The position numbers and the translations under genes are program-made. Under the pieces are notes generated by a model. The model saw nothing but the letters and a program-made list of their open reading frames with translations. It made no database searches and had not been told where the DNA came from. Shown piece after piece: positions 42,575 to 62,746 of a stretch of DNA of 64,000 nt. The stretch lies in sequence record OQ718158.1. One strand, written 5' to 3'. The stretch is from Escherichia phage vB_Ec-M-J. The stretch's first letter is position 1. The number at the start of each line of letters is the position of its first letter.

Positions 42575-43263
42575 GCAATGATTAGTACTGAATTATTACT
42601 TTCACCTTAATTTCAATTACCCCTTTACCCTTCGGGGTAAAATTCCATTACCCCTTGAGGCTCCAGCAAAAAGTTGGTTAGTACTCCATCCTAAATCTCG
42701 ATCCTAAAAATTTTGGAGTACCTATGAAATAAAAGTTGGATCTTCGAAATTTGAAATTTACGTTGGGACGTTTATGATTTGTGGGATATAATGATGTTTG
42801 TAGTCGGGTAGTTTTCAAGAATATCAGCACTGAATAATGAAAGAAAGCTATTGACATTATGATTCAGTACTGTATAATGTTCTACATAGGGTGATGAGTT
42901 GCTGCGAACAATTCATTTACTCTACCTCCTGTCGTGAGACAGTACAGAAAAGATAGTTCCTCCTGTGGTGGTACATCTTTTTGAACCTCATATGAAAATC
43001 GTAATAACAGTACTGATATTAACAGAATGGTGTCAGTACTGATTTTAATCTAAAGCATTATGCCACCAGCACAAGCTGGTGGATTCCCTCTAACAGTATT
43101 CAGTACTACATGATGGTCTTCATCCTCCTAGGGTAACATAGTGAGGGCTATGATGGCAGTACTGAATACTCCCTTTCAAAAGATAGATCTATGGTATAGT
43201 ACTGACGGATTTTGGGCGTAGTTACCCTGGATGGATTTTGGACGTAGATATGTCTAGCCCTCC

Positions 43264-43395
43264 AGAAGTCTGGAAGTAAAGATGGCTATCCATCTAGACG
43301 GCTAAACGGCTAGATTTCTGGATGGCTAGATGGCTAGACGTTTGGACGGCTAAACGGCTAGATGGTTACACGTCTGGAAGTATAGACGGCTAAAT
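43264..43395. repeat. iteron-like direct repeats of (C/T)GGCTA(A/G)A
   Basis: about 9 copies of GGCTAGA/GGCTAAA within 130 bp, plus repeated TCTGGAAGT. Confidence 0.6.
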
Positions 43396-44151
43396 CAAAA
43401 TTTTATTTTGTTTTTCCAATAGTTCCCCTACCGCGTGGGGATAGTTTCCCCGCAGTATCTGGAGTTAGATTTTTCTGAATCTGGAATCATTATCTTATAA
43501 ACTGGGGGCAATGTCAACGACCTGGACGGATATTTTTAAAAATTTTTTCAGTACTGAATTTTGGGCGTAACTATGCACCCGGTGGGCTTGAGTCTTTCTC
43601 GACTTGATGGAACTATTATACAGTACTGAAAAAATAAAGCAATACCCTGGAAGCAAAAAAGTTTTAATTAATTTGCTTGCTATCCTGGGCCGGACTATGG
43701 TACTATATTTCAGTACTGAGAAAGTGCGTTTACCTGCTAGGGTGCGGGAGTGTATCCTTTTTTTATATCTTGAATTTTGGGCGTAATTCCGCACCCTCTG
43801 GGGTTTCCGCTTTCTCGCGTCTATGTAGTAATTATACGCTTTTTCAGGATCAAGTCAATACCTAAAAACAAAATAATTGAAAATAATTTAACGCGTTTAA
43901 ACGGCCCGTAAAGCCCTGGAATGATTGGAATGGTGCAAATGTATAGCTTAGGTGTATTAATGCGTTAGAATGCGTCTGAGGCCGTTTTACGGGGTATAGG
44001 GATGATTTGGTGGATTGATTCAGTACTGAATGATAGTACTACTATATAGAAAGATAGTTCCCCTGGATGGTTGCAGTACTGAATGATAGTACTGAATAAT
44101 AGTTCCCCTATATAGAAAGAAAACTATTTTAAAAGTATTTGTAGAAAGTAC

Positions 44152-44179
44152 TTGCAAACTAAGTTTAACGGCGTATAAT
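44152..44179 (+). promoter_or_regulatory. class-A early promoter
   Basis: AAAGTACTTGCAA-N16-TATAATGTTTTACATC, one of about 30 near-identical copies. Confidence 0.7.
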
Positions 44180-44234
44180 GTTTTACATCGAGAGCGGGAA
44201 CACTTCCCGCTACATATTACGAGAGATTAAAACG

Positions 44235-44597
44235 ATGGCGACTCAAATCACTAAAATTATTGCTAACCTGGTTAACTTTCGCGACGAGATGAAAGATCTT
44301 CCGGCAGAAACGGTAAAAATTCACATTTCAGCTTATCGGGAACTTATTGCAATGTTACCGCTTAAGCGTGAACAATACGCCGCGACCGTGATGCTTGATG
44401 CGATGATCCATAAGATGATCGCCAGTGATTTAACGATGGTTTATCAGTATATGGGCGAAAATTTCGCGGTGTATAGTAAACCAGTACCAGGAATGGAAAG
44501 TACAGAAGTATTACACGGTTTAAATTTAAAACAAGATGCATGGGATAATATGCCTCGTTTCCTGGTATGGGCTGACAGTGGCAAGATTTACGAATAA
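44235..44597 (+). CDS. small early-type ORF (hypothetical)
   Basis: track ORF trimmed to ATG after class-A promoter and GC hairpin. Confidence 0.55.
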   Translation: MATQITKIIANLVNFRDEMKDLPAETVKIHISAYRELIAMLPLKREQYAATVMLDAMIHKMIASDLTMVYQYMGENFAVYSKPVPGMESTEVLHGLNLKQDAWDNMPRFLVWADSGKIYE

Positions 44598-44611
44598 GTT
44601 TTAAAAAGTAC

Positions 44612-44639
44612 TTGCAAACTAAGTTTAAAAGCGTATAAT
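44612..44639 (+). promoter_or_regulatory. class-A early promoter
   Basis: same consensus; hairpin at 44651..44671. Confidence 0.7.
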
Positions 44640-44691
44640 GTTTTACATCAGGTGGGGAATAGTTCCCCACTATAATTAAGAGATTAATTTC

Positions 44692-44925
44692 ATGAGTACT
44701 ATTTTAACTGTTTCTCAATCCGTTGCACTGACTGACCTATTAAACGCTTTAAGCCGTTGCACTGAGGTTGGCTTGTTTGATGTGGTAGACGTTGCACCGG
44801 ACGTTATTAATCATTTTTGTGATGCGATGGAAGAATGTAAGGAAGATGATAGCCGTATGATGGCGGTCGCCTTTGAGGAAGTACAACCAGGTGAGATCAA
44901 AGGTTTACCAGTACTGAAAAAATAG
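44692..44925 (+). CDS. small early-type ORF (hypothetical)
   Basis: behind class-A promoter and hairpin GGTGGGGAATAGTTCCCCACT. Confidence 0.55.
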   Translation: MSTILTVSQSVALTDLLNALSRCTEVGLFDVVDVAPDVINHFCDAMEECKEDDSRMMAVAFEEVQPGEIKGLPVLKK

Positions 44926-44928
44926 TAC

Positions 44929-44956
44929 TTGCAAACTAAGTTTAAAAGCGTATAAT
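44929..44956 (+). promoter_or_regulatory. class-A early promoter
   Basis: same consensus; hairpin at 44968..44988. Confidence 0.7.
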
Positions 44957-45007
44957 ACTTTCTATCAGGTGGGGAATAGTTCCCCACTATATAAGAGGAT
45001 TTAAAAA

Positions 45008-45247
45008 ATGGCTAAATCAAAAATGTTCTTAGGTCACAAAAACAAAACTCATTGGAATGTAAGCCTTTGGATTAATAACGATGAGTCATTGTACCGGTTG
45101 GCCCAGGACTTTATTAACGATAGCACTAATCGCAATGATGCGGCCCGTCATATGATGTTATTTTTAGAACAGACTGGACAAGATAAAACACCGGACGGAT
45201 TCAAATATAGCACTACTGCGATCCGTGCGGCGATGGTTGGAATGTAA
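45008..45247 (+). CDS. small early-type ORF, paralog of 47111..47350
   Basis: shared HKNKTHWNVSLWINN and C-terminal TPDGFKYSTTAIRAAMVGM. Confidence 0.65.
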   Translation: MAKSKMFLGHKNKTHWNVSLWINNDESLYRLAQDFINDSTNRNDAARHMMLFLEQTGQDKTPDGFKYSTTAIRAAMVGM

Positions 45248-45335
45248 TAGAATAGAATTTATTTAAAGTACTATTGCACGGGGATAGTACTTTATAATAG
45301 TGTTTTATTCATACACCAACGATAAGGGCAACAGC

Positions 45336-45602
45336 ATGAATATTAAGTATTTTGCGACGCGTGAACAAGCTCGGATCGCCGCACGGCAGGACGGGGCAAC
45401 GTTTAAAGATATGGGCGTACAATCGGAACGTGGTAAACGTTGGGCCATTGTAAAGCGTAGTACCGCCAGATCATTACAGTACTGGTTAGCGGCCTTAAAA
45501 AGTCCCGATAGTGTATCGCGTCGAGTGGTAGAAATAAAGCTCGACCGAAAGGGCAACCGCGTGACTGTGTACCGTACTAAAAAGATTGCAGTACTTGAAT
45601 AA
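45336..45602 (+). CDS. small early-type ORF, paralog of 57850..58245
   Basis: track ORF trimmed to ATG after AAGGGCAACAGC; shared FATREQARI...RKGNRVTVY. Confidence 0.6.
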   Translation: MNIKYFATREQARIAARQDGATFKDMGVQSERGKRWAIVKRSTARSLQYWLAALKSPDSVSRRVVEIKLDRKGNRVTVYRTKKIAVLE

Positions 45603-45609
45603 AAAGTAC

Positions 45610-45637
45610 TTGCAAACTATGTTTAATGGCGTATAAT
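45610..45637 (+). promoter_or_regulatory. class-A early promoter
   Basis: TTGCAA-N16-TATAAT then GCGGGAACACTTCCCGC hairpin. Confidence 0.7.
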
Positions 45638-45689
45638 GTTTTACATCGAGAGCGGGAACACTTCCCGCCTATAACCTGGAGTAATAAAA

Positions 45690-45920
45690 ATGACTAATAT
45701 GTATATGACTGAAGTTAAAACCGTAAAAGATACTACCACGAATAAAACTACTTACTTACAGCGGATCTGCGGTGTATGGCAACGTATCAGCAAATCAAAG
45801 TACTTTAAATTAACATCATATGCAAACCGTTCGGATTCATTCAGTACTGAAATAAAAGGTAATAAAGTACACCAATACGGCACTTATTATTATTATAGCC
45901 TGGACGCGATTGCAGTCTAA
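45690..45920 (+). CDS. small early-type ORF (hypothetical)
   Basis: behind class-A promoter and hairpin; GGAG RBS. Confidence 0.55.
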   Translation: MTNMYMTEVKTVKDTTTNKTTYLQRICGVWQRISKSKYFKLTSYANRSDSFSTEIKGNKVHQYGTYYYYSLDAIAV

Positions 45921-46201
45921 GCAGTTTACAAATCTTTACAATTGCCGGTATTGACTTATTTTGTCAGTACTGGCATAATGTATTCATTGGCAGATAAGCC
46001 GTAGCCCATAGGGTGCGGGAGTGTATCTATAGAAAAATTAGTTTAGTACAGTTACAATTGTGCACCCGGTGGGTTAGCTGTTGTCATGGGGTATATTATG
46101 CCAGTACTTGATAATGCTGTCAATACTTTTTTAATATTCAGTACTGAAAACTATTTTTAAAAAGTACTTGCAAACTATGTTTAAAGGCGTATAATGTTTT
46201 A

Positions 46202-46276
46202 CATCAGGACGGGGAACGAAATAAGTAACTTCCCGTTAAGTAGCCCAGGAGTAAGGCACACGAAAAACTCCCCTGA
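46202..46276 (+). ncRNA. candidate structured leader or small RNA, copy A
   Basis: ORF-free transcribed segment between two promoters; ATCAGG...CCTGAT closing stem plus inner ACGGG/CCCGT stem. Confidence 0.35.
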
Positions 46277-46327
46277 TAAAATAGTTTGACAATTGTTTTT
46301 AAAAGCGTATAATACTTACATCAACTA

Positions 46328-46453
46328 CTGAATGAGGGTTACAAAATGAAAACTATCACTACTACTACTTTCGTTATGGATTTTTCTGAATTGAATGAGG
46401 GTTGCAAAGCGAAAACTGTCACTAATACTACTTTCGTTATGGATTTTTCTGAA
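46328..46453 (+). repeat. 63-bp tandem duplication spanning the start of gene 46346
   Basis: TGAATGAGGGTT(A/G)CAAA...TTTCGTTATGGATTTTTCTGAAT occurs twice. Confidence 0.7.
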
Positions 46454-47020
46454 TTGAACGCAGAACAAAAAACGTCAGCTATCGAACTGGTTCGGGAACG
46501 TGAAAAAAACTTAAACGATGATTATTTTTCTGAAAGTGAAATTGAATACTATAAAGAAACAGTACTACCGGAATATGGCATTAATGACGCTGAAATACAA
46601 TTCAGTGGTTTTTGGTCCCAGGGTGACGGTGCATCAATCAGTACTGACCACGTTGACGCAGTGAAGTTTTTACGCAAGGTAAGAGCATTAACTAAATATC
46701 GCTCAATCCGTCACTTGCTGAATGAAGATGATTTGGCGATGAGTGTAAAGCGTTCTCACTCCCACTACTCGCATGAGAATACTGTAAGCGGGTACATTGA
46801 ATCGGCTTACACTGATTTAACCGCAAAACAAGAAACGTTAGTTAATGAGCTTGAGGAACTACTCACTGAAACTATTCGTGAATTATCCCGCAAGTTGTAC
46901 CGTGATTTAGAGAATGCATATGAGGATCAATTCACTACTGAAAACATTACGGCACTGATTGAGGGTAACGAATATCAATTCAATGTTATTAATGGCGTAG
47001 TAGAATCAATCGAATATTAA
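46346..47020 (+). CDS. hypothetical protein with 21-aa N-terminal tandem duplication
   Basis: 224-aa track ORF; 63-bp direct duplication spans the start region. Confidence 0.6.
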   Translation: MKTITTTTFVMDFSELNEGCKAKTVTNTTFVMDFSELNAEQKTSAIELVREREKNLNDDYFSESEIEYYKETVLPEYGINDAEIQFSGFWSQGDGASISTDHVDAVKFLRKVRALTKYRSIRHLLNEDDLAMSVKRSHSHYSHENTVSGYIESAYTDLTAKQETLVNELEELLTETIRELSRKLYRDLENAYEDQFTTENITALIEGNEYQFNVINGVVESIEY

Positions 47021-47110
47021 TTTAAAAAGTACTTGCAAACTAAGTTTAAAGGCGTATAATACTTTATATCGAGGCGGGGAGTGGTTCCCCGCTCAAACGA
47101 GGATTAAAAA

Positions 47111-47350
47111 ATGGCTAGTACTAAAACTTACAACGGGCACAAAAACAAAACTCATTGGAATGTTTCCTTATGGATTAATAACGGTGAGTCATTGTATCGG
47201 CTTGCTCAAAGTTGCATCGCACAAAGTAGAACTAAAGATATTGCTGCGGAATGTATGTACCGCAGATTAAAAGCCAACGGTACTACTACAACGCCGGACG
47301 GATTCAAGTATAGCACTACGGCGATCCGTGCTGCAATGGTTGGAATGTAA
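47111..47350 (+). CDS. small early-type ORF, paralog of 45008..45247
   Basis: near-identical N- and C-terminal blocks; own promoter and hairpin. Confidence 0.65.
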   Translation: MASTKTYNGHKNKTHWNVSLWINNGESLYRLAQSCIAQSRTKDIAAECMYRRLKANGTTTTPDGFKYSTTAIRAAMVGM

Positions 47351-47408
47351 TATTCAGTACTGTAACAATGGCGGGGAATGGTTCCCGCCTTTATTGAGGG
47401 TTTATCTA

Positions 47409-47669
47409 ATGAGTAAAGTAATTAGCTATACAGTACTAAGCAAGTCATTATCTATTAGCCAGTGCACCGATGGTTATTGGCTATTTGATGAAACGCGTGG
47501 AATGAATTTAGCTATGCGTGCAAAAACTGCTGAGGCGGCGTATCTTGAGGCACTGGAATACTACCAGGAACGTTTAACGGAAGTAGAAGAAGATTATAAA
47601 AGCCTCAAAGCGAAAGTAGATCATTTCGTCGGTCAATTCATCGAGGAAGACGACGACAAACAATATTGA
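47409..47669 (+). CDS. small early-type ORF (hypothetical)
   Basis: track ORF trimmed to ATG after GAGGG; acidic C-terminus. Confidence 0.5.
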   Translation: MSKVISYTVLSKSLSISQCTDGYWLFDETRGMNLAMRAKTAEAAYLEALEYYQERLTEVEEDYKSLKAKVDHFVGQFIEEDDDKQY

Positions 47670-47755
47670 AAAAGTACTTGCAATTAGTTTTAAGTACTGT
47701 ATAATGGTTTACATCAAAGGGAGAAATGGTTCTCCCTGGTAATGAGGAAAATAAA

Positions 47756-47977
47756 ATGGCTAATATCACTACTCTTTCCCAACTGGAAGCACTGGTTAAA
47801 TCTATGCGGGAACATGCCGACAAAATCGGCGTACAAGATCCAGCCGTTTGCTTCTGCGACGAATTGAATGATGATACCCTGGTAATAGCAGAAGTCCAGG
47901 ACGTTTCTAACTATTCCTCGCGTTACACTGGCGGCGTAGCAAATAAAGGTGACTTCTGTTTATACCTTACAAAATAA
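47756..47977 (+). CDS. small early-type ORF (hypothetical)
   Basis: track ORF trimmed to ATG after promoter and hairpin. Confidence 0.55.
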   Translation: MANITTLSQLEALVKSMREHADKIGVQDPAVCFCDELNDDTLVIAEVQDVSNYSSRYTGGVANKGDFCLYLTK

Positions 47978-48220
47978 CAACGCGGGGAGATAATAACTCC
48001 CCGTTACTTTTTCAGTACTGAATCATTTAATAGACGGATCTCGGCACCCGGTGGGTTAGTGACTGTTTCGTCTTGATGTAGTAATTATGCCAGTACTGGA
48101 TGCACTTGTCAACAATTATTTTTCAAATACTTTTTATTAAAATACTTGCAATTAGTTTTTAAACGCGTATAATGTTTTGCATAGGGGGAGCGGTTCCCCT
48201 GGTAACTAAGGAATAAGAAA

Positions 48221-48457
48221 ATGGTCGAACAAATCAAATCAACGTCTTCGAATGTAACGGGAACGGTAGCACACTTTACTAGTGATGAATCGCGGGGCGT
48301 TCCCTATTGTGCTGTACATGTAAACACTGAGGGTAACTACTGGTTTACGGTTTACGGATCATATTCATTTGGACGGCCAGGGCATCAAAAAATTCTGGAT
48401 AAAGTACAACCAACGGGTAAAAATATCACTGCCGAAATGTTTTATAAAAAATCATAA
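48221..48457 (+). CDS. small early-type ORF (hypothetical)
   Basis: behind promoter and hairpin; AAGGAATAAG RBS. Confidence 0.55.
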   Translation: MVEQIKSTSSNVTGTVAHFTSDESRGVPYCAVHVNTEGNYWFTVYGSYSFGRPGHQKILDKVQPTGKNITAEMFYKKS

Positions 48458-48541
48458 AGTACTTGCAATTAGTTTTTAGTACTGTATAATATTTTACATC
48501 GCAAGGGGGAGCGGTTCCCCCTGGTAACTAAGGATAATCAA

Positions 48542-48841
48542 ATGAAAATTGCAATCATCGCCCTGGCTTTATCTGTTTCCTCTTTCGCTGTTAATGCGTC
48601 ATTAGATGTAAGTAGTGAAAAATTCATTCAGTGCACTGTTGCAATGACCGATGAAAGAACTGGCGAGATTGTATTAAAGGATTTAGAGATCCAGCCGGAA
48701 GCATTTAAAAACGGGCCGTTCCATGAAGAAGACGAAAAAGGTAGCACGACAATTTATTACGATGCCAGTACTAAACGCGGTTCGGTCACTGTAATGGATA
48801 CTGAGAAAGTAACTCATACTGGCGTTATTAATTGCCGTTGA
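48542..48841 (+). CDS. secreted small protein (signal peptide)
   Basis: N-terminus MKIAIIALALSVSSFAVNA; own promoter and hairpin. Confidence 0.6.
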   Translation: MKIAIIALALSVSSFAVNASLDVSSEKFIQCTVAMTDERTGEIVLKDLEIQPEAFKNGPFHEEDEKGSTTIYYDASTKRGSVTVMDTEKVTHTGVINCR

Positions 48842-48862
48842 TAGATACTACGGGGTAACATC

Positions 48863-49093
48863 ATGACTAAGCGAATTGTTTTACTTAACGAAAGCAGTAC
48901 TACACAACTACTTAACGCCGTGCATTATGATATTGAAACGAGCGTTAATCTTATCAGTACTGTCGTACTGTTGGACACTGGAAAGGTCGCCAATGATAAA
49001 GCGATTGCAGGTATATTAACGGATCTTGAGCCTGGTAGCAGTGCACCCATAACGTTAAATGGTAAAGTGTTTAATATTTTACTCACTGATTAA
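48863..49093 (+). CDS. small ORF (hypothetical)
   Basis: 76-aa track ORF co-directional with neighbours. Confidence 0.5.
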   Translation: MTKRIVLLNESSTTQLLNAVHYDIETSVNLISTVVLLDTGKVANDKAIAGILTDLEPGSSAPITLNGKVFNILLTD

Positions 49094-49327
49094 GTACATA
49101 GCCCACCTGGTGGGCTTTTTTTGTTTTTGTAGTATCGTAGTACTGAGATACTTTGAAAATAGTTTTAAAAAAGTAGTTGACATTACCGCAGAAAAGCGTA
49201 GAATGTATTACATCAAGACGGGGAGCACTAAGTAGACCGCCAGTAAGTCGAACGAAAAACTGGACACGTCGAGAAAACTTTGATACACTAATAAACGTAA
49301 ACTAAACTTTAATTGAGGATTTATAAA

Positions 49328-49810
49328 ATGGCTAATGTAAAATCATTCATCAAAGCACTGGTAGCAAATGAAACTAACGTCGCGGCTGAGATCCTGGCTG
49401 AACTGGATAACGATACCATGAAAGCGGTACGCAATAATTTTAACATCGCGTACAGTACTGCGAAAGAACTACAAGCAAATAAAGCGGCAGAAATTGAAGC
49501 GGCAAAGGCTGCCCGTGAAGCAGAACTACAAGCAACAATCGAAAGTATTCAGGCGGCAGTAGTTGGATTGGATCTGGAAGTAGTTACAGAGATGGCACAA
49601 AAAGCCCTGGCGGTTAAGTATGGGGAAGACAAGCCAGAAGTAAAAGCCAAAAAATGGATTCAGGAACGCGTAGCGGTAGTACTGGATAATGGGGAAGAAT
49701 ATCTGATTCCGGTGCGTGGTAACTGTATTGCGGTAGTACTGGACGCGATTAACGCCAGCGGTATGACTCGCGAGGAATGGATCGAATCTCATCGCAAAGT
49801 TGAAGCATAA
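49328..49810 (+). CDS. hypothetical protein (161 aa), Ala/Glu-rich
   Basis: track ORF trimmed to ATG after GAGGA; followed by strong terminator. Confidence 0.6.
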   Translation: MANVKSFIKALVANETNVAAEILAELDNDTMKAVRNNFNIAYSTAKELQANKAAEIEAAKAAREAELQATIESIQAAVVGLDLEVVTEMAQKALAVKYGEDKPEVKAKKWIQERVAVVLDNGEEYLIPVRGNCIAVVLDAINASGMTREEWIESHRKVEA

Positions 49811-49831
49811 CAATTAAAGTACTGAATCACT

Positions 49832-49857
49832 AGCCCACTGTATAAGTGGGCTTTTTT
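49832..49857 (+). terminator. rho-independent terminator
   Basis: AGCCCACTGTATAAGTGGGCT then TTTTTT. Confidence 0.7.
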
Positions 49858-50322: not shown

Positions 50323-50407
50323 AAAAGTACTTGCAAAGTAAATCGAATAAAGTATAATACATTACATCAAGGGGAGAAATGGTTCTCCCCACTACAAGGA
50401 AACTAAA

Positions 50408-55081: not shown

Positions 55082-55144
55082 AAAGTATTGACAGTACTAT
55101 CCAGTAGTGTATAATGTTTTATATCTTAACTGAGGATAGAAATC

Positions 55145-55501
55145 ATGGGAATACAACATATCACGCGTACTACTGACAATGGCGAGATCACTGGCTATCA
55201 AGTACAGGGCAAAGTAGCACAATTGCAGTACTGGTTTGTTAAACGTGGAATCATTGCACCGGATCTTGATTATGACCGTGTAGCGTTTATTGATTCTCTT
55301 TATGTTGATCCTGATAGTCGGGGGAATGGTGAAGGTAACGAATTAATGAATGCCTTTATTGATGCCGCCGATGATTCAGATTGTATCATCTTAGAATGCG
55401 ATACGGGAGAAGATAACGCCTTTAATCTTAAAGAATGGTATGAAGGTTTCGGATTCGAGGTACTGATCGATAGTGAATATCCTATCATGATTTTATCATA
55501 G
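55145..55501 (+). CDS. small GNAT-like acetyltransferase (putative)
   Basis: LYVDPDSRGNGEGNELMNAFIDAA resembles GNAT acetyl-CoA-binding motif A. Confidence 0.4.
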   Translation: MGIQHITRTTDNGEITGYQVQGKVAQLQYWFVKRGIIAPDLDYDRVAFIDSLYVDPDSRGNGEGNELMNAFIDAADDSDCIILECDTGEDNAFNLKEWYEGFGFEVLIDSEYPIMILS

Positions 55502-55580
55502 TACTTGCATTTAGTTTTCAGTACTGTATAATAGTTTACATGAAGGGGAGAATAGTTCTCCCCACTACAAGGAAAGACAA

Positions 55581-55769
55581 ATGGAAAACTTATCAAGTAT
55601 TTTAGTACAAGATGATTTCGGTAATCCTGGAAGTGCTATCATTGTTCGGGGTAATAAAGCAACGTTTGTTATTGCTGGTGGACCCGTACAGCGTAGCATT
55701 AAAAATAATGCTGTTACCATTAATAATGTACGCTATCGCTTAGATAAAGAATTAATTCATAAACTGTAA
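55581..55769 (+). CDS. small early-type ORF (hypothetical)
   Basis: behind class-A promoter and hairpin. Confidence 0.55.
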   Translation: MENLSSILVQDDFGNPGSAIIVRGNKATFVIAGGPVQRSIKNNAVTINNVRYRLDKELIHKL

Positions 55770-55855
55770 AAAAGTACTGGACAATAGATTATAGTACTGT
55801 ATAATAAGTTACATGAAGGGGAGAAAATGATTCTCCCCACTAAGAGGAAAGAAAA

Positions 55856-56068
55856 ATGCAAGGTCAACTAATCGTTCGTAAATGGTCTGATACTAACGCT
55901 AAACCGTGGGATGTACAATACATCGCCCCCAATGGTGAATCCAGATATCAACCAGGTGTAACGCATAGTACTGAGCAATTCGCCGCCGCTCATCGTGAAC
56001 GTCTGTTACAATCAATGCAGCAAGGTTTCGGTGAAAAATTCATTCAGGATCATTGGCTGAAAGATTAA
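55856..56068 (+). CDS. small early-type ORF (hypothetical)
   Basis: behind TTGGACA-type promoter and hairpin. Confidence 0.55.
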   Translation: MQGQLIVRKWSDTNAKPWDVQYIAPNGESRYQPGVTHSTEQFAAAHRERLLQSMQQGFGEKFIQDHWLKD

Positions 56069-56154
56069 AAAGTTCTTGCACAGTACTGAATAAAGTGTAT
56101 AATGTTTTATATCGAGAGGGGAATAGTTCCCCTCCTAACAAAAAGGAAAGTATA

Positions 56155-56328
56155 ATGATCCAAGTAGAATTATCAGTACTGAAAGATCTATTTTATCGGT
56201 TAGGTACTAATGGCGAGTATCCTAAAAGTGATACCGCAAAACTTTTTGTATCACTCGACTTATGGCAACGCGAACAATTAGTAATGTCGTGGCGTAAAGG
56301 TAAAGCAGATCGCGAGGTGAAAGCATGA
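56155..56328 (+). CDS. small early-type ORF (57 aa)
   Basis: track ORF trimmed to ATG after promoter and hairpin. Confidence 0.5.
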   Translation: MIQVELSVLKDLFYRLGTNGEYPKSDTAKLFVSLDLWQREQLVMSWRKGKADREVKA

Positions 56329-56474
56329 AAGAATTCTTATTTGAAGTAGTGTTTCAAGGTGTCGGTAGTAACCAACTGATTCGCTCAAGTGGTTACAATG
56401 TTAACCAGGCATGGAATAACATTAAACAAATGTACCCGAACGCTATCACATATCGCAACCCGAAAGAAGTTTAA
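56325..56474 (+). CDS. small ORF (49 aa), translationally coupled
   Basis: hand-found ORF; ATGA overlap; followed by terminator/promoter module. Confidence 0.45.
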   Translation: MKEFLFEVVFQGVGSNQLIRSSGYNVNQAWNNIKQMYPNAITYRNPKEV

Positions 56475-56488
56475 AAATAATTGAAAAA

Positions 56489-56521
56489 GGGATTGACTCC
56501 GGTCAGTCCCTTTGCTATTAT
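56489..56521 (+). terminator. fused terminator-promoter module, UCCG-loop variant
   Basis: GGGATTGAC-TCCG-GTCAGTCCC then TTTGCTATTATAT. Confidence 0.6.
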
Positions 56522-56656
56522 ATACGCATAGAAACAAATTAGCCCACCGGGTGCATAAATGTATCTATTGTTTGCTGGTGGCTAGTACTATCAAGTACTG
56601 AAAACTATTTTTAAAAAGTACTTGCAAAGTATCACGATAAGCGTATAATGTTTTAC

Positions 56657-56729
56657 ATCAGGACGGGGAACGAAACAAGTAACCCCGTTAAGTAGTCCAG
56701 GAGTAAGACATACGAAAAACTCCCCTGAT
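56657..56729 (+). ncRNA. candidate structured leader or small RNA, copy B
   Basis: about 90% identical to copy A, with stem-preserving differences. Confidence 0.35.
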
Positions 56730-56798
56730 AAAATAGTTTGACAATAGAAAGTAAACGAGTATAATACTTACATCAACCACTGATAAGGAAACATTAAA

Positions 56799-57074
56799 AT
56801 GCGGATTCTACTGACAGCTAACGAAATCGAACAAGTACTGACTACTAACCTGGAAGACTGGAAACGTGAAGCAGATATCCAGGCGGTTCAATGGCTTAAT
56901 GATAAGTTAACGCCGGATGATTTAAGTAAGATTGTAGATCCTCAATTCTACGAAGATATTCACGACACCGCGTTAAGCGTCGAGGATGTACTTGATAAGC
57001 ACTACATTGATACTGATTTACATGTTTACGGTCGTAAAAACTTTATCACTATTCACGACATTTACAATACTTAA
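56799..57074 (+). CDS. small acidic early-type ORF
   Basis: downstream of duplicated dual-promoter cassette. Confidence 0.55.
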   Translation: MRILLTANEIEQVLTTNLEDWKREADIQAVQWLNDKLTPDDLSKIVDPQFYEDIHDTALSVEDVLDKHYIDTDLHVYGRKNFITIHDIYNT

Positions 57075-57160
57075 GTATTGACAAAGTATCTTAGTACTGT
57101 ATAATAGTTTACATCGAGAGGGGAAACGGTTCCCCTCCTAACAAAGAGAGAGAAATAAAA

Positions 57161-57343
57161 ATGGCTAAGTGCACTATCTGCAAGAAAGAAATAGTATTAG
57201 TTCCAAGTGCCCGTGAACGTGCCGCTCGGTTTGGTGGCAAAGCGTCAGACTATACAAAAATGTTTACTGCCCATACAGCTTGCCAGGTAGCAAAACGTTC
57301 ACAAGAAAGCGTAGAATTAATGCGTAAACTTTCCAAAAAATAA
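57161..57343 (+). CDS. small early-type ORF with Cys pairs
   Basis: CTICKK...HTACQ; behind promoter and hairpin. Confidence 0.55.
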   Translation: MAKCTICKKEIVLVPSARERAARFGGKASDYTKMFTAHTACQVAKRSQESVELMRKLSKK

Positions 57344-57430
57344 GTATTGACAAAGTATCTTAGTACTGTATAATAGTTTACATCAAGCGAGGGGAATGGT
57401 TCCCCTCCTAACAAAGAGAGAGAAATAAAA

Positions 57431-57754
57431 ATGGCTATGATCCTTACCCAGAAAGTAGAACTGAAAATTGTAACCTCCTTTGACATTAACGTTAATCGGT
57501 GGACTGATTCACACGGCAATACTTACCACTCTTGCTACGTGTCTGCGTTAATTGGCGACCGCTGGGAAGACCTGGGACACGAAACCTTTACATACGGTTA
57601 CGGTACACAAGGCGAATACACGGGCTTGGAGATCATTAAAGAAACCGTTATAGGTTTCAACCCGAAAGAAAAAGTTATTCACCGCATCGAGGAAGAGATC
57701 AACAAAGAAATAACAGTTCGATACAACGATGTAAAACGTAAGAAAGACATGTAA
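57431..57754 (+). CDS. small early-type ORF, paralog of 50934..51257
   Basis: shared RWTDSHGNTYHSCYVS and VKRKKDM; upstream region duplicated from 57161 gene. Confidence 0.65.
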   Translation: MAMILTQKVELKIVTSFDINVNRWTDSHGNTYHSCYVSALIGDRWEDLGHETFTYGYGTQGEYTGLEIIKETVIGFNPKEKVIHRIEEEINKEITVRYNDVKRKKDM

Positions 57755-57849
57755 TAGAATCCATTTAAAGTACTATTTGACATTGCCCAGATAGTACTTT
57801 ATAATAGACTCTAACTTGTAGTACTAACTCAACTAATAGGATGTATACC

Positions 57850-58245
57850 ATGATTACTAAATTCTACGCTACCCGTGAAGCTGCCCGTATTGTTGCACGC
57901 GAGGAAGGAGCAGCATTTAAAGACATGGGCAAAGATGCACCGAAAGGTCAACGCTGGGCCGTACAGTTCAAAGAAATCTCTGATATTGTGAATTCACCTG
58001 AGCCAGTACTGACAGCAGCAGAACTAAAACGAGCGGATATGCTGGCGGCAATACTTGACGCACAAGATGAGTTTATCGCTGATTCTGATATCAAAGTACA
58101 GGTAAACCACACCGCATGGACTCACGCGGATCACCTGGCAAACCTTAAGCGTCCAAGTGAACTGATTCGCAACCAGAAAGAGATCCGACACGACCGTAAG
58201 GGTAATCGTGTAACAGTATACAGTAAACGCCGCCAGGTTATCTAA
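57850..58245 (+). CDS. small early-type ORF, paralog of 45336..45602
   Basis: start set by paralog alignment; shared FYATREAARI...RKGNRVTVY; terminator follows. Confidence 0.6.
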   Translation: MITKFYATREAARIVAREEGAAFKDMGKDAPKGQRWAVQFKEISDIVNSPEPVLTAAELKRADMLAAILDAQDEFIADSDIKVQVNHTAWTHADHLANLKRPSELIRNQKEIRHDRKGNRVTVYSKRRQVI

Positions 58246-58267
58246 TAACTTGCAGTACTAACAACAC

Positions 58268-58292
58268 GGCGGGATCAGTTCCCGCCTTTTTT
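58268..58292 (+). terminator. rho-independent terminator
   Basis: GGCGGGATCAGTTCCCGCC then TTTTTT. Confidence 0.7.
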
Positions 58293-58306
58293 ATAGGACA
58301 AACAAC

Positions 58307-58561
58307 ATGATTAAGGTTCAACTATCAAACGATAATGTATTACGGGTACACTATAAAGCACCTCAGAGAATCATCACAAAGGCCGTACAGCTTGCTAATG
58401 AGTTTATTAATGGTAACCTATTACCTAGGAAGTTAAGCAACGGGAAACTGCGTGTAATCGACGTGGACACTAACAACAGGATAGTAATCGAGAACACAGG
58501 AAAGATAAACCTTTATGAGCATCAACAATACAATAAGAAAATAAAACTAATATCACGTTGA
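58307..58561 (+). CDS. small ORF (hypothetical)
   Basis: 84-aa track ORF; AGGA RBS. Confidence 0.5.
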   Translation: MIKVQLSNDNVLRVHYKAPQRIITKAVQLANEFINGNLLPRKLSNGKLRVIDVDTNNRIVIENTGKINLYEHQQYNKKIKLISR

Positions 58562-58614
58562 CAGTACTCAATTGTTTTAGTACTATGTACACATACCAAC
58601 ACGGGAGAAACAAA

Positions 58615-58833
58615 ATGAAATTATCTAAAATCGAAAAGAAAACTATTGATGAAGCAGTTAAGCACGGTTATACCTTTCGTAATGATTCACATTTTACCAA
58701 TTTTCAACAAGGGTATCGTACTATTAAAAAACTAATTGACAAAGGTTTATTAGTTGAAGTCAATAACGGTAACGGTATCGAGTATCAACCAACACAGGAC
58801 GCATTTTATTTTAAGAAATATAATATTATCTAA
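58615..58833 (+). CDS. small ORF, promoter-duplicate partner of 58891..59133
   Basis: track ORF trimmed to ATG; identical upstream TTGACA promoter block. Confidence 0.5.
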   Translation: MKLSKIEKKTIDEAVKHGYTFRNDSHFTNFQQGYRTIKKLIDKGLLVEVNNGNGIEYQPTQDAFYFKKYNII

Positions 58834-58890
58834 TTGACAGTACTCAAATGTTTTAGTACTATATGTACATACCAACACGGGGGAAACAAA

Positions 58891-59133
58891 ATGATTACTT
58901 TAGAAAAACGTATCAAAGAAACTACATCGCTGGTGGAACTGTTAACAGTACTCAAATGTAAAACAACACCATTCAGCACGCCGGACTTTATTAATATGGT
59001 TGATGTTAATGGTCGCTATCGTATCACGGTCGAACAAGGAGCGGCGAAAGTATTCAGTACTAAAAACACTAAGGAAGTGATCCACGCCGTTAATGTTAAA
59101 AAAGTAGTTGCCATTGATAGTAAAGTACTGTAA
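58891..59133 (+). CDS. small ORF, promoter-duplicate partner of 58615..58833
   Basis: track ORF trimmed to ATG after GGGGGAAAC. Confidence 0.5.
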   Translation: MITLEKRIKETTSLVELLTVLKCKTTPFSTPDFINMVDVNGRYRITVEQGAAKVFSTKNTKEVIHAVNVKKVVAIDSKVL

Positions 59134-59164
59134 TATAGTTTCATTAACTCAAGGAGAACATGCA

Positions 59165-59749
59165 ATGCGTAATTATACTAAATTCATCCGTACACTGTCA
59201 GAAATGGAAACCAACAAAGAGATCCTTTCAGCTTGTCGGTTAGCTGGACTGGAGATCATCGGTGCTGGTTCTTCCCGTATAGTATTCGCTTTAAATGATC
59301 GGTTAGTGATTAAGGTCGCGAATTGTGATGCGGGTGTAGAACAAAATGAAACTGAATGTAAGGTATGGAATTTTTTAGACTATGACCGCCCTCAGTTGAA
59401 ACAGTACTTTGCAAAGGTGCATATGCATTTATGCGATCCTGATAATATGTTTATCGTTATGGATCGGTTGAGTACTGCAAGTAAAGGCAGTGTGAAGCAC
59501 GTTAACGCGTGCAATGAATTAAAGTACAATATTAAACGTAATGCAATTGAACGCCAGCACCGCTTTGCTGATGCACTACAACACGTCGATGATACATTAT
59601 CAACACTAACGATAAGAGATATCAGAAAACAGAATATCGGCCAGGATCGTAATGGCCTTATTAAAGTACTTGATTACGGTTTAACCTGCAATATCTGGAA
59701 TCAGTACTATAAAAAGCGTGATGTGGCAGCAAGTAAGGTAACACGATAA
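59165..59749 (+). CDS. mini protein-kinase-like protein (putative)
   Basis: IGAGSSRIVF (Gly loop), VIKVA (Lys), IRDIRKQNIG (catalytic loop), KVLDYG (DFG-like); AAGGAG RBS. Confidence 0.5.
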   Translation: MRNYTKFIRTLSEMETNKEILSACRLAGLEIIGAGSSRIVFALNDRLVIKVANCDAGVEQNETECKVWNFLDYDRPQLKQYFAKVHMHLCDPDNMFIVMDRLSTASKGSVKHVNACNELKYNIKRNAIERQHRFADALQHVDDTLSTLTIRDIRKQNIGQDRNGLIKVLDYGLTCNIWNQYYKKRDVAASKVTR

Positions 59750-59763
59750 AAAAGATTAAAAAA

Positions 59764-59796
59764 GGGATTGACTCCGGTCAGTCCCTTTGCTATTAT
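59764..59796 (+). terminator. fused terminator-promoter module, UCCG-loop variant
   Basis: identical to module at 56489. Confidence 0.6.
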
Positions 59797-59973
59797 ATAT
59801 TCATTGAGAGATAACTCACTGACCCATAGGGTGCGGAAGTGTATCTATTATATAAGTATTCAGTACTGAAAACTATTTTAAAAAAAAGTACTTGCATTGT
59901 ACTTAGAATCAAGTATAATGTTTTATATCGAGAGGGGGAAATGGTTCTCCCTGGTATATTAAGGAATAAAATC

Positions 59974-60195
59974 ATGACTACAATGACTTGCATTTACGCT
60001 TCCAATCTTCTGAATGATGCGGCCTTTAATGTTGATTCAGAATATCAATGTTATCGGGATGAAAATAAAAAAGTTTTTGTAGTTGATAATAATGGTTTCC
60101 ATATTGAATTACAATCCGGCTTCACTGGCGTTGATGGTAAATCAGTATGGGGCGTACAGGATGATAAAGGTACATATCATTTTAAACGTAATTAA
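59974..60195 (+). CDS. small early-type ORF (hypothetical)
   Basis: track ORF trimmed to ATG after promoter and hairpin. Confidence 0.55.
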   Translation: MTTMTCIYASNLLNDAAFNVDSEYQCYRDENKKVFVVDNNGFHIELQSGFTGVDGKSVWGVQDDKGTYHFKRN

Positions 60196-60278
60196 GTATT
60201 GACAAAGTATCTTAGTACTGTATAATAGTTTACATCAAGGGGAGAATAGTTCTCCCCGATACTAAAAGGAATAAAATC

Positions 60279-60686
60279 ATGACTACTACTAATCAAGCTC
60301 GGTCCATCGCCAACGATAAAAATCATGCTGAAATGGTCGCTGGTTACATTGAAGCTATGCAATTCAGTACTGTACACAATGAGAACGGCGAATACCTGGA
60401 AGATTATGAATTATCAGAGCAAGCCCATCAAGCGGCAGTGATTGCATGTTCACGTTTCCTTGCTGTACATGGTGAAGATATGGAAACAGTACAAAAACAC
60501 CATAATCCTGATTATACTTATAGTCATGCGGGTCATGATCTCTTTCTTACTCGCGAAGGTCACGGCACTGGTTTTTGGGATCGTGATATCGGTCACTATG
60601 ATGATATATTCACTAAGTACTGCGAAGAAATCAACGTTTGCGATCCCTATGTAGGCGATGATAATCTAATCTATATGGGCGAATAA
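60279..60686 (+). CDS. small early-type ORF, His/Asp-rich
   Basis: 135-aa track ORF behind promoter and hairpin. Confidence 0.55.
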   Translation: MTTTNQARSIANDKNHAEMVAGYIEAMQFSTVHNENGEYLEDYELSEQAHQAAVIACSRFLAVHGEDMETVQKHHNPDYTYSHAGHDLFLTREGHGTGFWDRDIGHYDDIFTKYCEEINVCDPYVGDDNLIYMGE

Positions 60687-60773
60687 AAGTATTTGACAAA
60701 GTATATCAGTACTGTATAATAGTTTACATCAAGGGGAGAATAGTTCTCCCCACCAATAAAAGGAAACAAAATT

Positions 60774-61046
60774 ATGTCCAGCTACTCCGCTACTATGATC
60801 ATTAAAGATATGAACGGTAATCCTACTTCTGCTGGTGGATCATTTGGAAACATTAATTTAGATGGTCGGTTATCCATGCAATCAGCCATCGATGCAGCGA
60901 AAGAAGTTTTTAAGAATGAATGTACTGTAAGTAAGCTGGATTATATGGGATTCGCTATCGAAAAAACTAATCGTTTTGTGAACTACAAAAATCCACTGAT
61001 GATCGATACTAACCTGAAAGCAAACGAAGTGGGGTACTTATTATGA
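60774..61046 (+). CDS. small early-type ORF (hypothetical)
   Basis: behind promoter and hairpin. Confidence 0.55.
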   Translation: MSSYSATMIIKDMNGNPTSAGGSFGNINLDGRLSMQSAIDAAKEVFKNECTVSKLDYMGFAIEKTNRFVNYKNPLMIDTNLKANEVGYLL

Positions 61047-61234
61047 CAGTAGAAGAAGTTAAAAAAGTACTGGCAGTACTACGCTATCATAATCATTGCA
61101 AGGTGAAGAATGATCCTGATTATCTCGATTCATCCCTGGAAGAGGATACACTACAAGCAATAAGCCATATGCAAAAAATGCTTAAGCGTATGACCGAAAA
61201 GAATAGGCCGGACTATATCGGAAATAAAATTTAA
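61043..61234 (+). CDS. small ORF, translationally coupled
   Basis: ATGA overlap with upstream gene. Confidence 0.5.
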   Translation: MTVEEVKKVLAVLRYHNHCKVKNDPDYLDSSLEEDTLQAISHMQKMLKRMTEKNRPDYIGNKI

Positions 61235-61321
61235 AAAGTACTTGCATTGTAGTTAGATTAACGTATAATGTTTTATATCGAGAGGGGGAAATGGTTTCCC
61301 CTCAAGTCCAGGAGATACACC

Positions 61322-61585
61322 ATGAACACTATCGAAATCACTATCAATGCACACGTATACGACAACGTAGTACTGCAAACTACTATGACCGCTAATGATA
61401 CCAGTACTTTGCGGAATACTGTTATTAGTGCCGTATGTGCTGCAATCGGTGATGTCGCCCTGGAAAATGCAGAACACATCAACAACGGTTTCACTATGTG
61501 CAAACGTGATAACGCAAAACATATCATCGTAGAAGGTTACGGCGGTGTAGAATTTAATGTTTATATGAAAAAAGTACTTGCATAA
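61322..61585 (+). CDS. small early-type ORF (hypothetical)
   Basis: track ORF trimmed to ATG after promoter and hairpin. Confidence 0.55.
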   Translation: MNTIEITINAHVYDNVVLQTTMTANDTSTLRNTVISAVCAAIGDVALENAEHINNGFTMCKRDNAKHIIVEGYGGVEFNVYMKKVLA

Positions 61586-61652
61586 TAACTAAAACAAAGT
61601 ATAATGTTTTGCATAGGGGGAGATATCCTCCCCCACTAAAAGGAGTAATAAA

Positions 61653-61877
61653 ATGGCTAACTTTGATGAACTGATGCGGGAAGTAGCTAACCTGGCAGAA
61701 GAGAAGAAATCATTCGATTCTATCTATAACACCGCTCACCGTGATTCAGTACTGGCATGTAACCAGGATCAAAAAGATGAACTAATCGCCACCTATCATG
61801 AAGCATGGAAGTACTACCGACAATGGGAGAAAGAAGAAAGTGAGTCTACCATCGAAGGTATCAATAATCTAATCTAA
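61653..61877 (+). CDS. small early-type ORF (hypothetical)
   Basis: behind promoter and hairpin; AAGGAG RBS. Confidence 0.55.
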   Translation: MANFDELMREVANLAEEKKSFDSIYNTAHRDSVLACNQDQKDELIATYHEAWKYYRQWEKEESESTIEGINNLI

Positions 61878-61953
61878 AAGTTTTATTTCAGTACTATTGA
61901 CATAGCTTGATAGTACTGATGTAATAACTTTACTAACTACAAGGGGAAACATA

Positions 61954-62211
61954 ATGGATCAATTCACACAATATCGGGTAAATCCTCAATCTATGGCCTA
62001 CGTAGAAGACCATAAAACGTTACCAGTACTGCAACCAGTTAAAGGCCGTATCTATCGTGGCCTTGCCTGGGATACGGCCCAGGATGGATATAAAACCGTC
62101 GCCGTGGGGATGTATTGCGGGAATGGTGAATGGTTTGATCCTAACAATCCGATTGCACTTGACAGTACTGAAAAAATGAAATGGGCCGACTACATCGAAG
62201 ATATTTCATAA
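61954..62211 (+). CDS. small early-type ORF (hypothetical)
   Basis: behind class-B promoter. Confidence 0.55.
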   Translation: MDQFTQYRVNPQSMAYVEDHKTLPVLQPVKGRIYRGLAWDTAQDGYKTVAVGMYCGNGEWFDPNNPIALDSTEKMKWADYIEDIS

Positions 62212-62301
62212 AAACTATTTGACAGTACTAACCAGTAATGTATAATGTTTTACATAGAGCGGGGGAATAGTTCTCCCGCCAATAGTTTGGAGTTAAACAT
62301 T

Positions 62302-62502
62302 ATGTCTATCGCTATCGCCCTGGTTGAAGTACTGAAAGAAGCTAAAGCCAACCTTATCGATGTACAGATTAAGGAATTGCAAAACGGCTTAATCGGCTGT
62401 ACTTGTACCGCTGGTGGAGCGGCAGACTATCGAGAACACGAATCACTCGAATCACTGGTTCGGTATCTTACCATGATCGTTGATGATTGGAGAATCATCT
62501 AA
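62302..62502 (+). CDS. small early-type ORF (hypothetical)
   Basis: track ORF trimmed to ATG after promoter and hairpin. Confidence 0.5.
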   Translation: MSIAIALVEVLKEAKANLIDVQIKELQNGLIGCTCTAGGAADYREHESLESLVRYLTMIVDDWRII

Positions 62503-62519
62503 CAAAAAAGAATAAAAAA

Positions 62520-62552
62520 GGGATTGACTCCGGTCAGTCCCTTTGCTATTAT
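62520..62552 (+). terminator. fused terminator-promoter module, UCCG-loop variant
   Basis: identical to module at 56489. Confidence 0.6.
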
Positions 62553-62746
62553 ATACGCATAGACAAAAACTAGCCCACAGGGTGCATAAGTGTATCCAAA
62601 ATATATAGTTAATAACGGTGAGTAACTATCTGCTGGTGGAGTGAAAACTATTAATAAAAAAGTATTGACAAAGTATATCAGTACTGCAATAATGTATCTC
62701 GTAGGGCGGCAATGGTGCGACGGCCCACAAAGTTAGGAGCTTCAAA

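Follow-up and report, generated by a model that had tools for sequence, protein, structure and literature searches.

We analysed a stretch of 64,000 nucleotides (hereafter the window) of Escherichia phage vB_Ec-M-J, sequence record OQ718158.1, with respect to the octamer GCTGGTGG, the Chi sequence of E. coli, several copies of which had been noticed in its right-hand part in an earlier note made from the letters alone. Judging from its sequence, the window belongs to a PBECO4/121Q-like (Asteriusvirus) jumbo phage of E. coli, and its closest relatives, with best matches of 93-96% identity, are E. coli phages. Relatives were taken from the GenBank phage collection, and a search of IMG/VR for related loci, made with the acetyltransferase encoded in the region described below, led to one contig.

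The right-hand part of the window was compared with two relatives whose ends are defined. In the closest one, vB_EcoM_E9.1 (E9.1; 367,851 bp, linear), the gene layout is the same at both ends of the record, and positions 1-20,107 equal positions 347,745-367,851 with 0 mismatches, forming an exact 20,107-bp repeat whose first and last 400 nt map to positions 42476-42885 and 63601-64000 of the window. For fEgEco12, a direct terminal repeat (DTR) of 20,993 bp was determined by PhageTerm, and the linear ends were confirmed by restriction digests (PMC13070987). The last 40 nt of the window and of fEgEco12 are identical, and the fEgEco12 DTR starts at position 42476 of the window. Since the termini and the DTR start of fEgEco12 coincide with these positions, the sequence identifies 42476-64000 as the right DTR (21,525 bp) of a linear Asteriusvirus genome, with position 64000 as its physical right end.

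The DTR is an early-gene block. On its + strand there are 11 perfect TTGACA-16/17-TATAAT promoters, together with a AAAAAGTACTTGCAA-N16-TATAATGTTTTACAT cassette present in about 24 copies; in most of these, a hairpin (GGGGAGAA-loop-TTCTCCCC) comes next, and then a ribosome-binding site with a small open reading frame (ORF). The GC content climbs from 0.33 to 0.38-0.42 on entering the DTR and is 0.386 over the DTR compared with 0.35 elsewhere. The share of CTG among Leu codons is 0.26 in the DTR genes and 0.06-0.07 in the rest of the genome, and this codon usage fits genes translated ahead of any available phage functions. In a Pfam scan of the 54 DTR ORFs, one small ORF (within 44352-63845) matched a ParE-like toxin domain (E = 6e-11), two ORFs matched DUF7249, and a DksA/TraR zinc finger and a GNAT acetyltransferase were found (Table 1). 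When the DTR ORFs were compared with PHROGs, all matches among the 25 most-matched of 51 families were to families of unknown function. Scans of the window for tRNA genes and Rfam families found nothing, so that the surroundings of the intergenic Chi copies correspond to none of the RNA families described.

Chi Octamers Are Concentrated in the Terminal Repeat

The window contains 15 copies of Chi, 10 on the + strand and 5 on the - strand. Dinucleotide shuffles of the window gave a mean of 0.67 copies and a maximum of 3, and an order-3 Markov model predicted 2.07 copies (p = 6e-9), with Chi ranking about 21st among all octamers. The excess over chance that the earlier note had claimed is thus borne out, with 15 copies against roughly 0.7-2 expected, and it is far more pronounced in the DTR, where 11 of the 15 copies lie (9 on + and 2 on -; 1 per 1.96 kb). 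When Markov models (orders 1-4) were trained on the DTR sequence, they predicted 0.16-0.38 copies on + and 0.04-0.09 on - (Poisson probabilities of the observed numbers, 3e-10 and 4e-3), and none of the 2 x 2000 simulations under orders 2 and 3 reached 11 copies. Chi is about 25-fold enriched in the DTR, on both strands.

Outside the DTR, the window has 4 copies where about 1.7 are expected, and we therefore regard them as background. Three of these lie in an array of RCC1-like paralogs, and two of the three (23288 and 24202) share a Val-Tyr-Ala-Gly-Gly motif. The same distribution was seen in E9.1, where 11 copies lie in one copy of the 20.1-kb DTR and 19 in the other 327.6 kb (about 9 expected; binomial p = 5e-7), which corresponds to one copy every 1.8 kb inside the DTR and one every 17 kb across the 328 kb outside it. 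The Chi excess is therefore local to the DTR, and the remaining genome is near background. The earlier note had proposed a genome-wide count as a check, and because the signal is local, a frequency not above expectation genome-wide would mislead if taken as a refutation.

As shown in Table 1, the seven coordinates listed in the earlier note all hold the octamer, with the correction that 56573 is 56574. That list of five + and two - copies was not the full set, since four more lie in the same span (55674, 58929, 60831 and 62410). All four are in coding sequence, so that 7 of the 11 DTR copies, and not all of them as had been stated, are intergenic. A strand and orientation analysis, also proposed earlier, gave no additional signal. 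The 9:2 ratio is that predicted from composition, the Markov expectation itself being about 4:1; we therefore dropped strand bias as a sign of selection, and it is not independent evidence, nor is orientation separately supported.

Table 1. Positions, strand, context and conservation of Chi copies in the window, followed by other features of the region
Feature	Position	Strand	Context	State in other genomes
Chi, first arm of inverted pair CCACCAGC-ACAA-GCTGGTGG	43063-43070	-	intergenic; pair lies 588-607 nt from left DTR boundary	both octamers of pair intact in 5/5 other Asteriusvirus DTRs covering the site
Chi, second arm of inverted pair	43075-43082	+	intergenic	as for first arm
Chi	49877-49884	-	intergenic; directly downstream of terminator 49832-49852	least conserved site; mutated in G17 (CCACTAGC) and IMG/VR contig (CCGTCAGC)
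Chi	49939-49946	+	intergenic; 54 nt past 49877 copy, upstream of early promoter	intact in 6/6 other DTRs
Chi	54214-54221	+	intergenic; 3' arm of stem AGCCCACUGGU/GCUGGUGGGCU (~54199-54224)	intact in 6/6 other DTRs
Chi	55674-55681	+	in ORF 55581-55769; GCT GGT GGA (Ala-Gly-Gly)	intact in 6/6 other DTRs
Chi	56574-56581	+	intergenic; 9 nt past TAGCCCACnGGGTGCATAArTGTATC element, upstream of early promoter	octamer intact in 6/6 other DTRs; flanks only ~88% identical
Chi	58929-58936	+	in ORF 58891-59133; (TC)G CTG GTG G (Leu-Val)	intact in 6/6 other DTRs
Chi	60831-60838	+	in ORF 60774-61046 (Ala-Gly-Gly)	intact wherever region present; region absent from TH47
Chi	62410-62417	+	in ORF 62302-62502 (Ala-Gly-Gly)	sole variable + site; GCTGGCGG in PBECO4, diverged in IMG/VR contig
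Chi	62632-62639	+	intergenic; 33 nt past copy of TAGCCCAC..TGTATC element; 1,361 nt from right physical end, the nearest copy to it	intact in 6/6 other DTRs
Chi outside DTR	9718	+
Chi outside DTR	23288, 23426, 24202	-	in RCC1-like paralog array
Early cassettes	44123-63173	+	~24 copies (e.g. 44138-44236, 46154-46204, 52352-52449)
DksA/TraR zinc finger	54824-55081
GNAT acetyltransferase	55145-55501
Two-part repeated element	56473-56565, 59748-59840, 62504-62596; also 52815-52952		shorter copies at 45998 and 54549
Palindrome CAGTACTG	window-wide		densest in 42476-64000 (e.g. 43008-43041, 44150, 47690, 52378)
Tandem array, direct-repeat family D10	43232-43391		in ~1-kb non-coding stretch at left edge of DTR
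Back-to-back ORFs of 60-70 aa (~25)	37161-42201	+	directly before DTR
RCC1-like paralogous genes (~14)	20519-37202	-	331-399 aa

Evidence Pointing to Selection on the Exact Octamer

The specificity of the octamer, its absence from repeat families, its conservation, the choice of codons that spell it and its recurrence in other lineages together point to selection on the exact sequence. With respect to specificity, GCTGGTG in the DTR is followed by G in 9/9 cases, and the 24 single-mismatch variants of Chi sum to only 6 copies on + and 0 on -. Furthermore, Chi tops the 168 permutations of the same composition, with 9 copies in the DTR compared with 3 for the runner-up. Chi (8/11) does not exceed variants such as GCTGGTGA (12/2) or GGTGGTGG (8/18) in the unique genome. 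At least 60 direct-repeat families were found, and the octamer occurs in none of the 20 largest; the flanks of the + copies have no conserved position apart from A at +1 (6/9), and the two copies that follow a shared element (56574 and 62632) do so at different spacing (9 vs 33 nt).

Conservation was examined by comparing the window with six other Asteriusvirus DTRs, setting the octamer columns against flanks of +-100 nt. The octamer columns differ at 1.8% and the flanks at 5.7% (p = 5e-5, a value that is indicative only because the genomes are related), and among 62 site-genome pairs 4 have a changed octamer, compared with 21 predicted from the divergence of the flanks. In TH47, a Chi copy is gained where the window has GCTGATGG.

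The copies within genes show the same preference at the codon level. In the DTRs of the window, CBB, GAP32 and RaK2, Ala-Gly-Gly is spelled GCTGGTGG in 3/3, 4/4, 4/5 and 1/1 cases, respectively, that is, in 12/13 where 1.8 are expected, and G|Leu-Val|G is spelled CTGGTG in 9/14 where about 0.5 are expected. The corresponding figures for the unique genome are 4/9 and 1/12.

Chi Clusters in Related Jumbo Phages

Comparable clusters were found in the terminal repeats of other Asteriusvirus genomes, namely those of EC22.5-2 (9 on + and 2 on -), TH47 (8 and 2), PBECO4 (8 and 2) and G17 (9 and 1), whereas about 92 kb of flanking sequence from these four genomes combined holds one Chi. Beyond this genus, the annotated 22.4-kb "redundant repeat" of CBB (Mimasvirus) has 7 copies on + and 2 on -, with 2 further - copies in the 26 kb upstream, and the equivalent block of GAP32 (Mimasvirus) also has 7 and 2, with 2 in 18 kb outside. 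A GC-raised 20-kb block of RaK2 (Alcyoneusvirus) holds 8 and 1, with 1 in about 30 kb of flanks, and the terminal block of Erwinia phage Hallingskeid holds 11 and 2, with 0 on + and 5 on - in 22 kb outside. The number expected per terminal block of these relatives is about 0.4-0.5 on + and 0.1-0.2 on -. When all octamers were ranked by enrichment across the four lineages, Chi came second, behind CAGTACTG. In CBB, 8 of the 9 copies are in coding sequence, and their flanks bear no resemblance to those of the copies in the window.

The hosts of the relatives bearing these clusters are Klebsiella, Cronobacter/Pectobacterium and Erwinia, all of which belong to the Enterobacterales, and a passage of PMC13181404 states that enteric RecBCD enzymes share GCTGGTGG as Chi. 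Note that the last Chi lies about 1.4 kb from the right end in Asteriusvirus and CBB and about 0.4 kb from it in Hallingskeid, and we make no claim of a fixed distance.

Hairpins, Terminators and a Repeated Element near Chi Copies

The earlier note had placed the octamers in intergenic hairpins, which holds for part of them. The copies at 43063 and 43075 pair in a genuine hairpin, with 8 bp in the stem and ACAA as the 4-nt loop (-15.7 kcal/mol, z = -3.05), followed by ATTCCCTC, and this inverted pair presents Chi in both orientations at one place. Its - copy is oriented for RecBCD entering at the left end, and because it lies 588 nt from the left DTR boundary, the left copy of the repeat should have it 588 nt from the left physical end. 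The second proposed hairpin, at 49877 and 49939, is a 9-bp inverted repeat whose arms are 54 nt apart and which folds weakly (z = -1.4); in addition, the coding copies and most CBB copies lie outside hairpins. The stem that holds 54214 in its 3' arm is stable (-18.1 kcal/mol, z = -4.0) and is followed by TTTAATCATTT, and 56574 is in the 3' arm of a weaker stem (z = -1.7). In both of these, the 5' arm is of the AGCCCAC type, which resembles the arm of local terminators and is not the exact complement of Chi. A terminator scan called neither the 43063-43082 nor the 54199-54224 stem, although the terminators at 49100 and 49832 were detected, and since no T-run follows it, the 43063/43075 stem is not a canonical terminator.

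The element preceding 56574 and 62632 belongs to a two-part repeated element (Table 1). Its first part is a TTGACT-17-TATTAT promoter with the -35 box inside the hairpin AAAGGGATTGACTCCGGTCAGTCCCTTT, and its second part contains the conserved TAGCCCAC sequence. The Chi octamer is not part of it, since the four other copies of the element are without Chi. In RaK2, GAP32 and an Erwinia phage, there are short matches that overlap this two-part element, and two related words, GGGTGCGG and CCCACAGG, are enriched in all four lineages. The element has no Rfam match; it might represent a gene for a small RNA or else have a regulatory function.

Other Features of the Terminal Repeat and Its Surroundings

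The most over-represented words in the window are the palindrome CAGTACTG, with 61 copies where 8.7 are expected (p = 6e-31), and its AGTACT core. In early promoters, the palindrome directly precedes the -35 and -10 boxes, and it is also present in hairpins and ORFs. In the 348-kb non-redundant E9.1 genome (one DTR plus the unique part), AGTACT occurs 897 times where base composition predicts roughly 120, 133 of them in the 20-kb repeat, and CAGTACTG is the most consistently enriched octamer in the terminal blocks of the four lineages (36, 21, 63 and 57 copies vs 4-8 expected). An interpretation of CAGTACTG as LexA half-sites was ruled out, as the DTR has no SOS/LexA boxes.

The order of elements in the early cassettes is very regular: an A-tract, AGTACTTGCAA (or TTGACA), 16 nt, TATAATGTTTTACATC, a 5'-leader hairpin and, at the end, a small ORF preceded by a ribosome-binding site. 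At the left edge of the DTR, the tandem array has an 8-nt periodicity (AGACGGCT AAACGGCT AGATTTCT GGATGGCT AGATGGCT). In the left copy of the repeat, it would lie about 750-915 nt from the left physical end, and it might serve as a site for terminase, packaging or replication. A run of about 70-aa ORFs comparable to that directly before the DTR follows the left repeat in the E9.1 record (20205-26000), indicating that the repeat is flanked by arrays of miniature genes on both sides. The tandem paralogs on the - strand carry RCC1-like repeats (..YGQLGDGG..) and are annotated as "regulator of chromosome condensation" in relatives.

A Possible Role with RecBCD and Its Alternatives

The best-supported explanation of these results is that selection maintains the DTR octamers as functional Chi sites in this virulent jumbo phage of E. 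coli; on the present sequence evidence we give it a probability of roughly 65%. The enteric host and the interaction with RecBCD that the earlier note had suggested agree with the Asteriusvirus identity and with the specificity, conservation, codon choice and recurrence of the octamer; the RecBCD part is what we infer from these. RecBCD reads 5'-GCTGGTGG-3' only on approach from the 3' side. On injection, the linear genome would have free duplex ends, and no recognisable RecBCD inhibitor would accompany it. A RecBCD enzyme loaded at the right end would move leftward and meet nine correctly oriented Chi copies, the first of them 1.36 kb in, and one loaded at the left end would meet the two - strand copies after about 0.6 kb and 7.4 kb. 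On reaching Chi, RecBCD would cease to destroy the 3'-ended strand and would load RecA there. Damage would be limited to sequence that has a second copy at the other end, and the unique genome would be spared because the proposed switch falls inside the duplicated segment. The RecA-coated strand of the repeat could then invade the other repeat copy, yielding circles or concatemers, and this invasion might also prime replication, perhaps the first fork. On this view, the terminal repeat would be a buffer that can be sacrificed and, at the same time, the place where recombination is initiated.

In the Pfam comparison, none of the 54 DTR ORFs matched a Gam-, Abc2- or gp5.9-type family, and the rest of the genome was judged from annotation alone. 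A megablast search of the DTR against 5,426 E. coli genomes gave no match, which ruled out the DTR as host-derived DNA. Furthermore, restriction enzymes cut fEgEco12 DNA in the pattern expected from in silico digestion (PMC13070987), indicating that heavy base modification is unlikely.

Several points weigh against this explanation. First, E9.1 is annotated, as deposited, with UvsX/UvsY, a gp32-like SSB, an SbcCD-like nuclease, endonuclease VII and Dda-like genes, and because it encodes a recombination set of its own, host recombination is not obviously needed. A published rule ties Chi richness to the absence of a phage Rec module, although the Rec+Inh- class of lambdoids (Bobay) also over-represents Chi, concentrated toward cos. 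Our literature search found no report linking the growth of these phages to RecBCD or RecA. Second, the 9:2 strand ratio is the compositional expectation, so that selection on orientation is not supported, and the genomes compared within the genus lack phylogenetic independence. Third, either DNA end might enter first, a virion protein may cap the DNA ends, and there might be an inhibitor of RecBCD, not recognised as such, among the small DTR proteins, in which case Chi would be irrelevant. Finally, several intergenic copies are in stem-loops and could have roles at the RNA level, and T5, the classic coliphage with a long DTR, has only two Chi in its 10-kb repeat.

A wider proposal, which we put forward tentatively and would not bet on, is that the 20-kb DTR of RaK2-like jumbo phages is an expendable, Chi-studded buffer by which RecBCD would be tamed in cis without an inhibitor, degradation being confined to duplicated sequence and the nuclease being turned into an initiator of repeat-to-repeat invasion and first-round replication. 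If true, the presence of nine copies in one orientation and two in the other would indicate that the right end enters first and stays exposed for the longest time, and defence systems that watch for RecBCD inhibition would not be tripped.

Chi is linked to the acquisition of CRISPR spacers, and there are defence systems that sense RecBCD inhibition. It is conceivable, though unlikely, that Chi acts here through RecBCD and that the chief gain is immune evasion, with fewer degradation products available for CRISPR spacers and no need for an inhibitor that guard-type defences could sense. This account shares the sequence evidence given above. The DTR ORFs contain no recognisable RecBCD inhibitor family, in agreement with it, and a phage with its own recombinase set has less need of a recombination benefit. 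However, the sequence does not separate it from the recombination model, both being compatible, and recombination between the repeats offers the simplest account of the duplicated terminal placement.

Quite unlikely, in our judgement, is a selection of the octamer for a phage purpose unrelated to RecBCD, such as the arm of a terminator or RNA-processing stem or a site for an early phage protein, with its identity to Chi a coincidence. Five of the nine + copies are intergenic, four of them in the 3' arm of a predicted stem, and local terminators have AGCCCAC/GTGGGCT arms, that at 49100 (AGCCCACCTGGTGGGCT-T7) being one mismatch off Chi; the same conserved element also precedes two Chi copies. 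Against such a purpose are the four window copies and the 8/9 in CBB that are found within coding sequences of unrelated genes, where they are read in two frames and have no hairpins. Nothing outside the octamer is conserved among the nine + copies save the A at +1, the 43063/43075 stem lacks the T-run of a canonical terminator, and 4 of 6 copies of the TAGCCCAC..TGTATC element are without Chi. In addition, the exact host Chi is present in 4/4 lineages sampled, all with Enterobacterales hosts, which makes a coincidence unlikely.

We consider it very improbable that the excess is a passive by-product of composition, arising from the GC-richer DTR, host-like codons (CTG) or recent acquisition of host-like DNA. 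The DTR does differ from the rest in GC content (0.386 vs 0.35) and in Leu CTG (0.26 vs 0.06-0.07), but DTR-trained models predict no more than 0.4 copies on + and 0.1 on -, and one-mismatch variants are not enriched. The codon choice at Ala-Gly-Gly and Leu-Val goes far beyond the DTR's own usage, 7 of the 11 copies are non-coding, and none of the 5,426 E. coli genomes compared shows similarity. The descent of all copies from one duplicated element, which the earlier note had offered as an alternative, is scarcely credible, since the likenesses that exist (56574 and 62632 downstream of related elements, 49939 and 54214 with a shared downstream CGTTAGAATGCG motif) are outweighed by the absence of the octamer from the 20 largest repeat families, the spacing of 9 vs 33 nt to the shared element, the unrelated flanks of most copies and the location of four copies in different genes.

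Preferring, as above, functional Chi sites kept by selection, we note what this would imply. The Chi cluster would probably govern how the host nuclease treats the phage DNA ends, and it suggests a general solution to the little-studied problem of how a 350-kb linear genome survives an end-dependent host nuclease during slow entry, before phage proteins are made. As a sequence signature, the cluster could help to locate terminal repeats in collapsed jumbo-phage assemblies, and for therapy candidates a dependence on host RecBCD status, if true, would be of practical relevance.

Comparison with Known Chi-Rich Systems

It is already known that phages can be enriched for host Chi near their packaged ends (P1, some lambdoid and T5-like phages), a property that has been linked with the lack of recombination functions encoded by the phage. 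New here are the confinement of Chi to a fixed, exact terminal repeat of about 20 kb, the virulent 350-kb phages with their own T4-type recombinase, and the retention of the cluster across four lineages. A full-text literature search found no report of Chi in jumbo-phage terminal repeats, and neither the fEgEco12 (PMC13070987) nor the CBB genome paper mentions Chi or RecBCD.

A close parallel is P1 (and P7 and D6), with 1 Chi per 1.90 kb in P1 compared with 1 per 1.96 kb here. In P1, Chi is also common in non-coding DNA, occurs in both orientations and is concentrated where terminal direct repeats recombine after injection, and its proposed role is circularisation mediated by RecBCD and RecA. 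However, P1 is temperate and is packaged by the headful from pac, with ends permuted over 20-40 kb, and it has no general recombinase of its own and is known to need RecBCD and RecA, whereas the phage described here is a virulent 350-kb phage with UvsX/UvsY and a fixed 21.5-kb repeat with exact ends.

The LLS-type lambdoids resemble it in that many Chi copies are clustered toward one packaging end (1 per 1.86 kb), 20/23 of those in LLS being oriented for RecBCD entering from that end. These phages differ in being temperate, of about 45 kb and cos-type, the LLS class being without recombinases; the enhancement of LLS growth by RecBCD has been measured. The present cluster also differs in lying within a duplicated terminal repeat dense in early promoters. 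Of the features of the Chi-rich, RecBCD-reliant class represented by P1 and LLS, the clustering at an end is thus found here, and the lack of an own recombination module is not, according to the E9.1 annotation.

T5 shares with the present phage a long DTR (10.2 kb) with pre-early genes dependent on host RNA polymerase and strong promoters. Its repeat has only two Chi (8127 and 8689, both +), and the next 35 kb have none (NC_005859, 1-45000). T5-like phages have been reported as Chi-rich genome-wide, so that the T5 copies must lie elsewhere in the genome, and with two Chi in its repeat, T5 is not a model for a cluster confined to the DTR. Finally, the E. coli chromosome has the same octamer, the same preference for the G-rich coding or leading strand, and the same frames (GCT GGT GG and CTG GTG). 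On the chromosome, Chi is evenly spread at 1 per 4.6 kb and mostly in ORFs, whereas here it is more than twice as dense, is confined to 6% of the genome and, in Asteriusvirus, is mostly intergenic.

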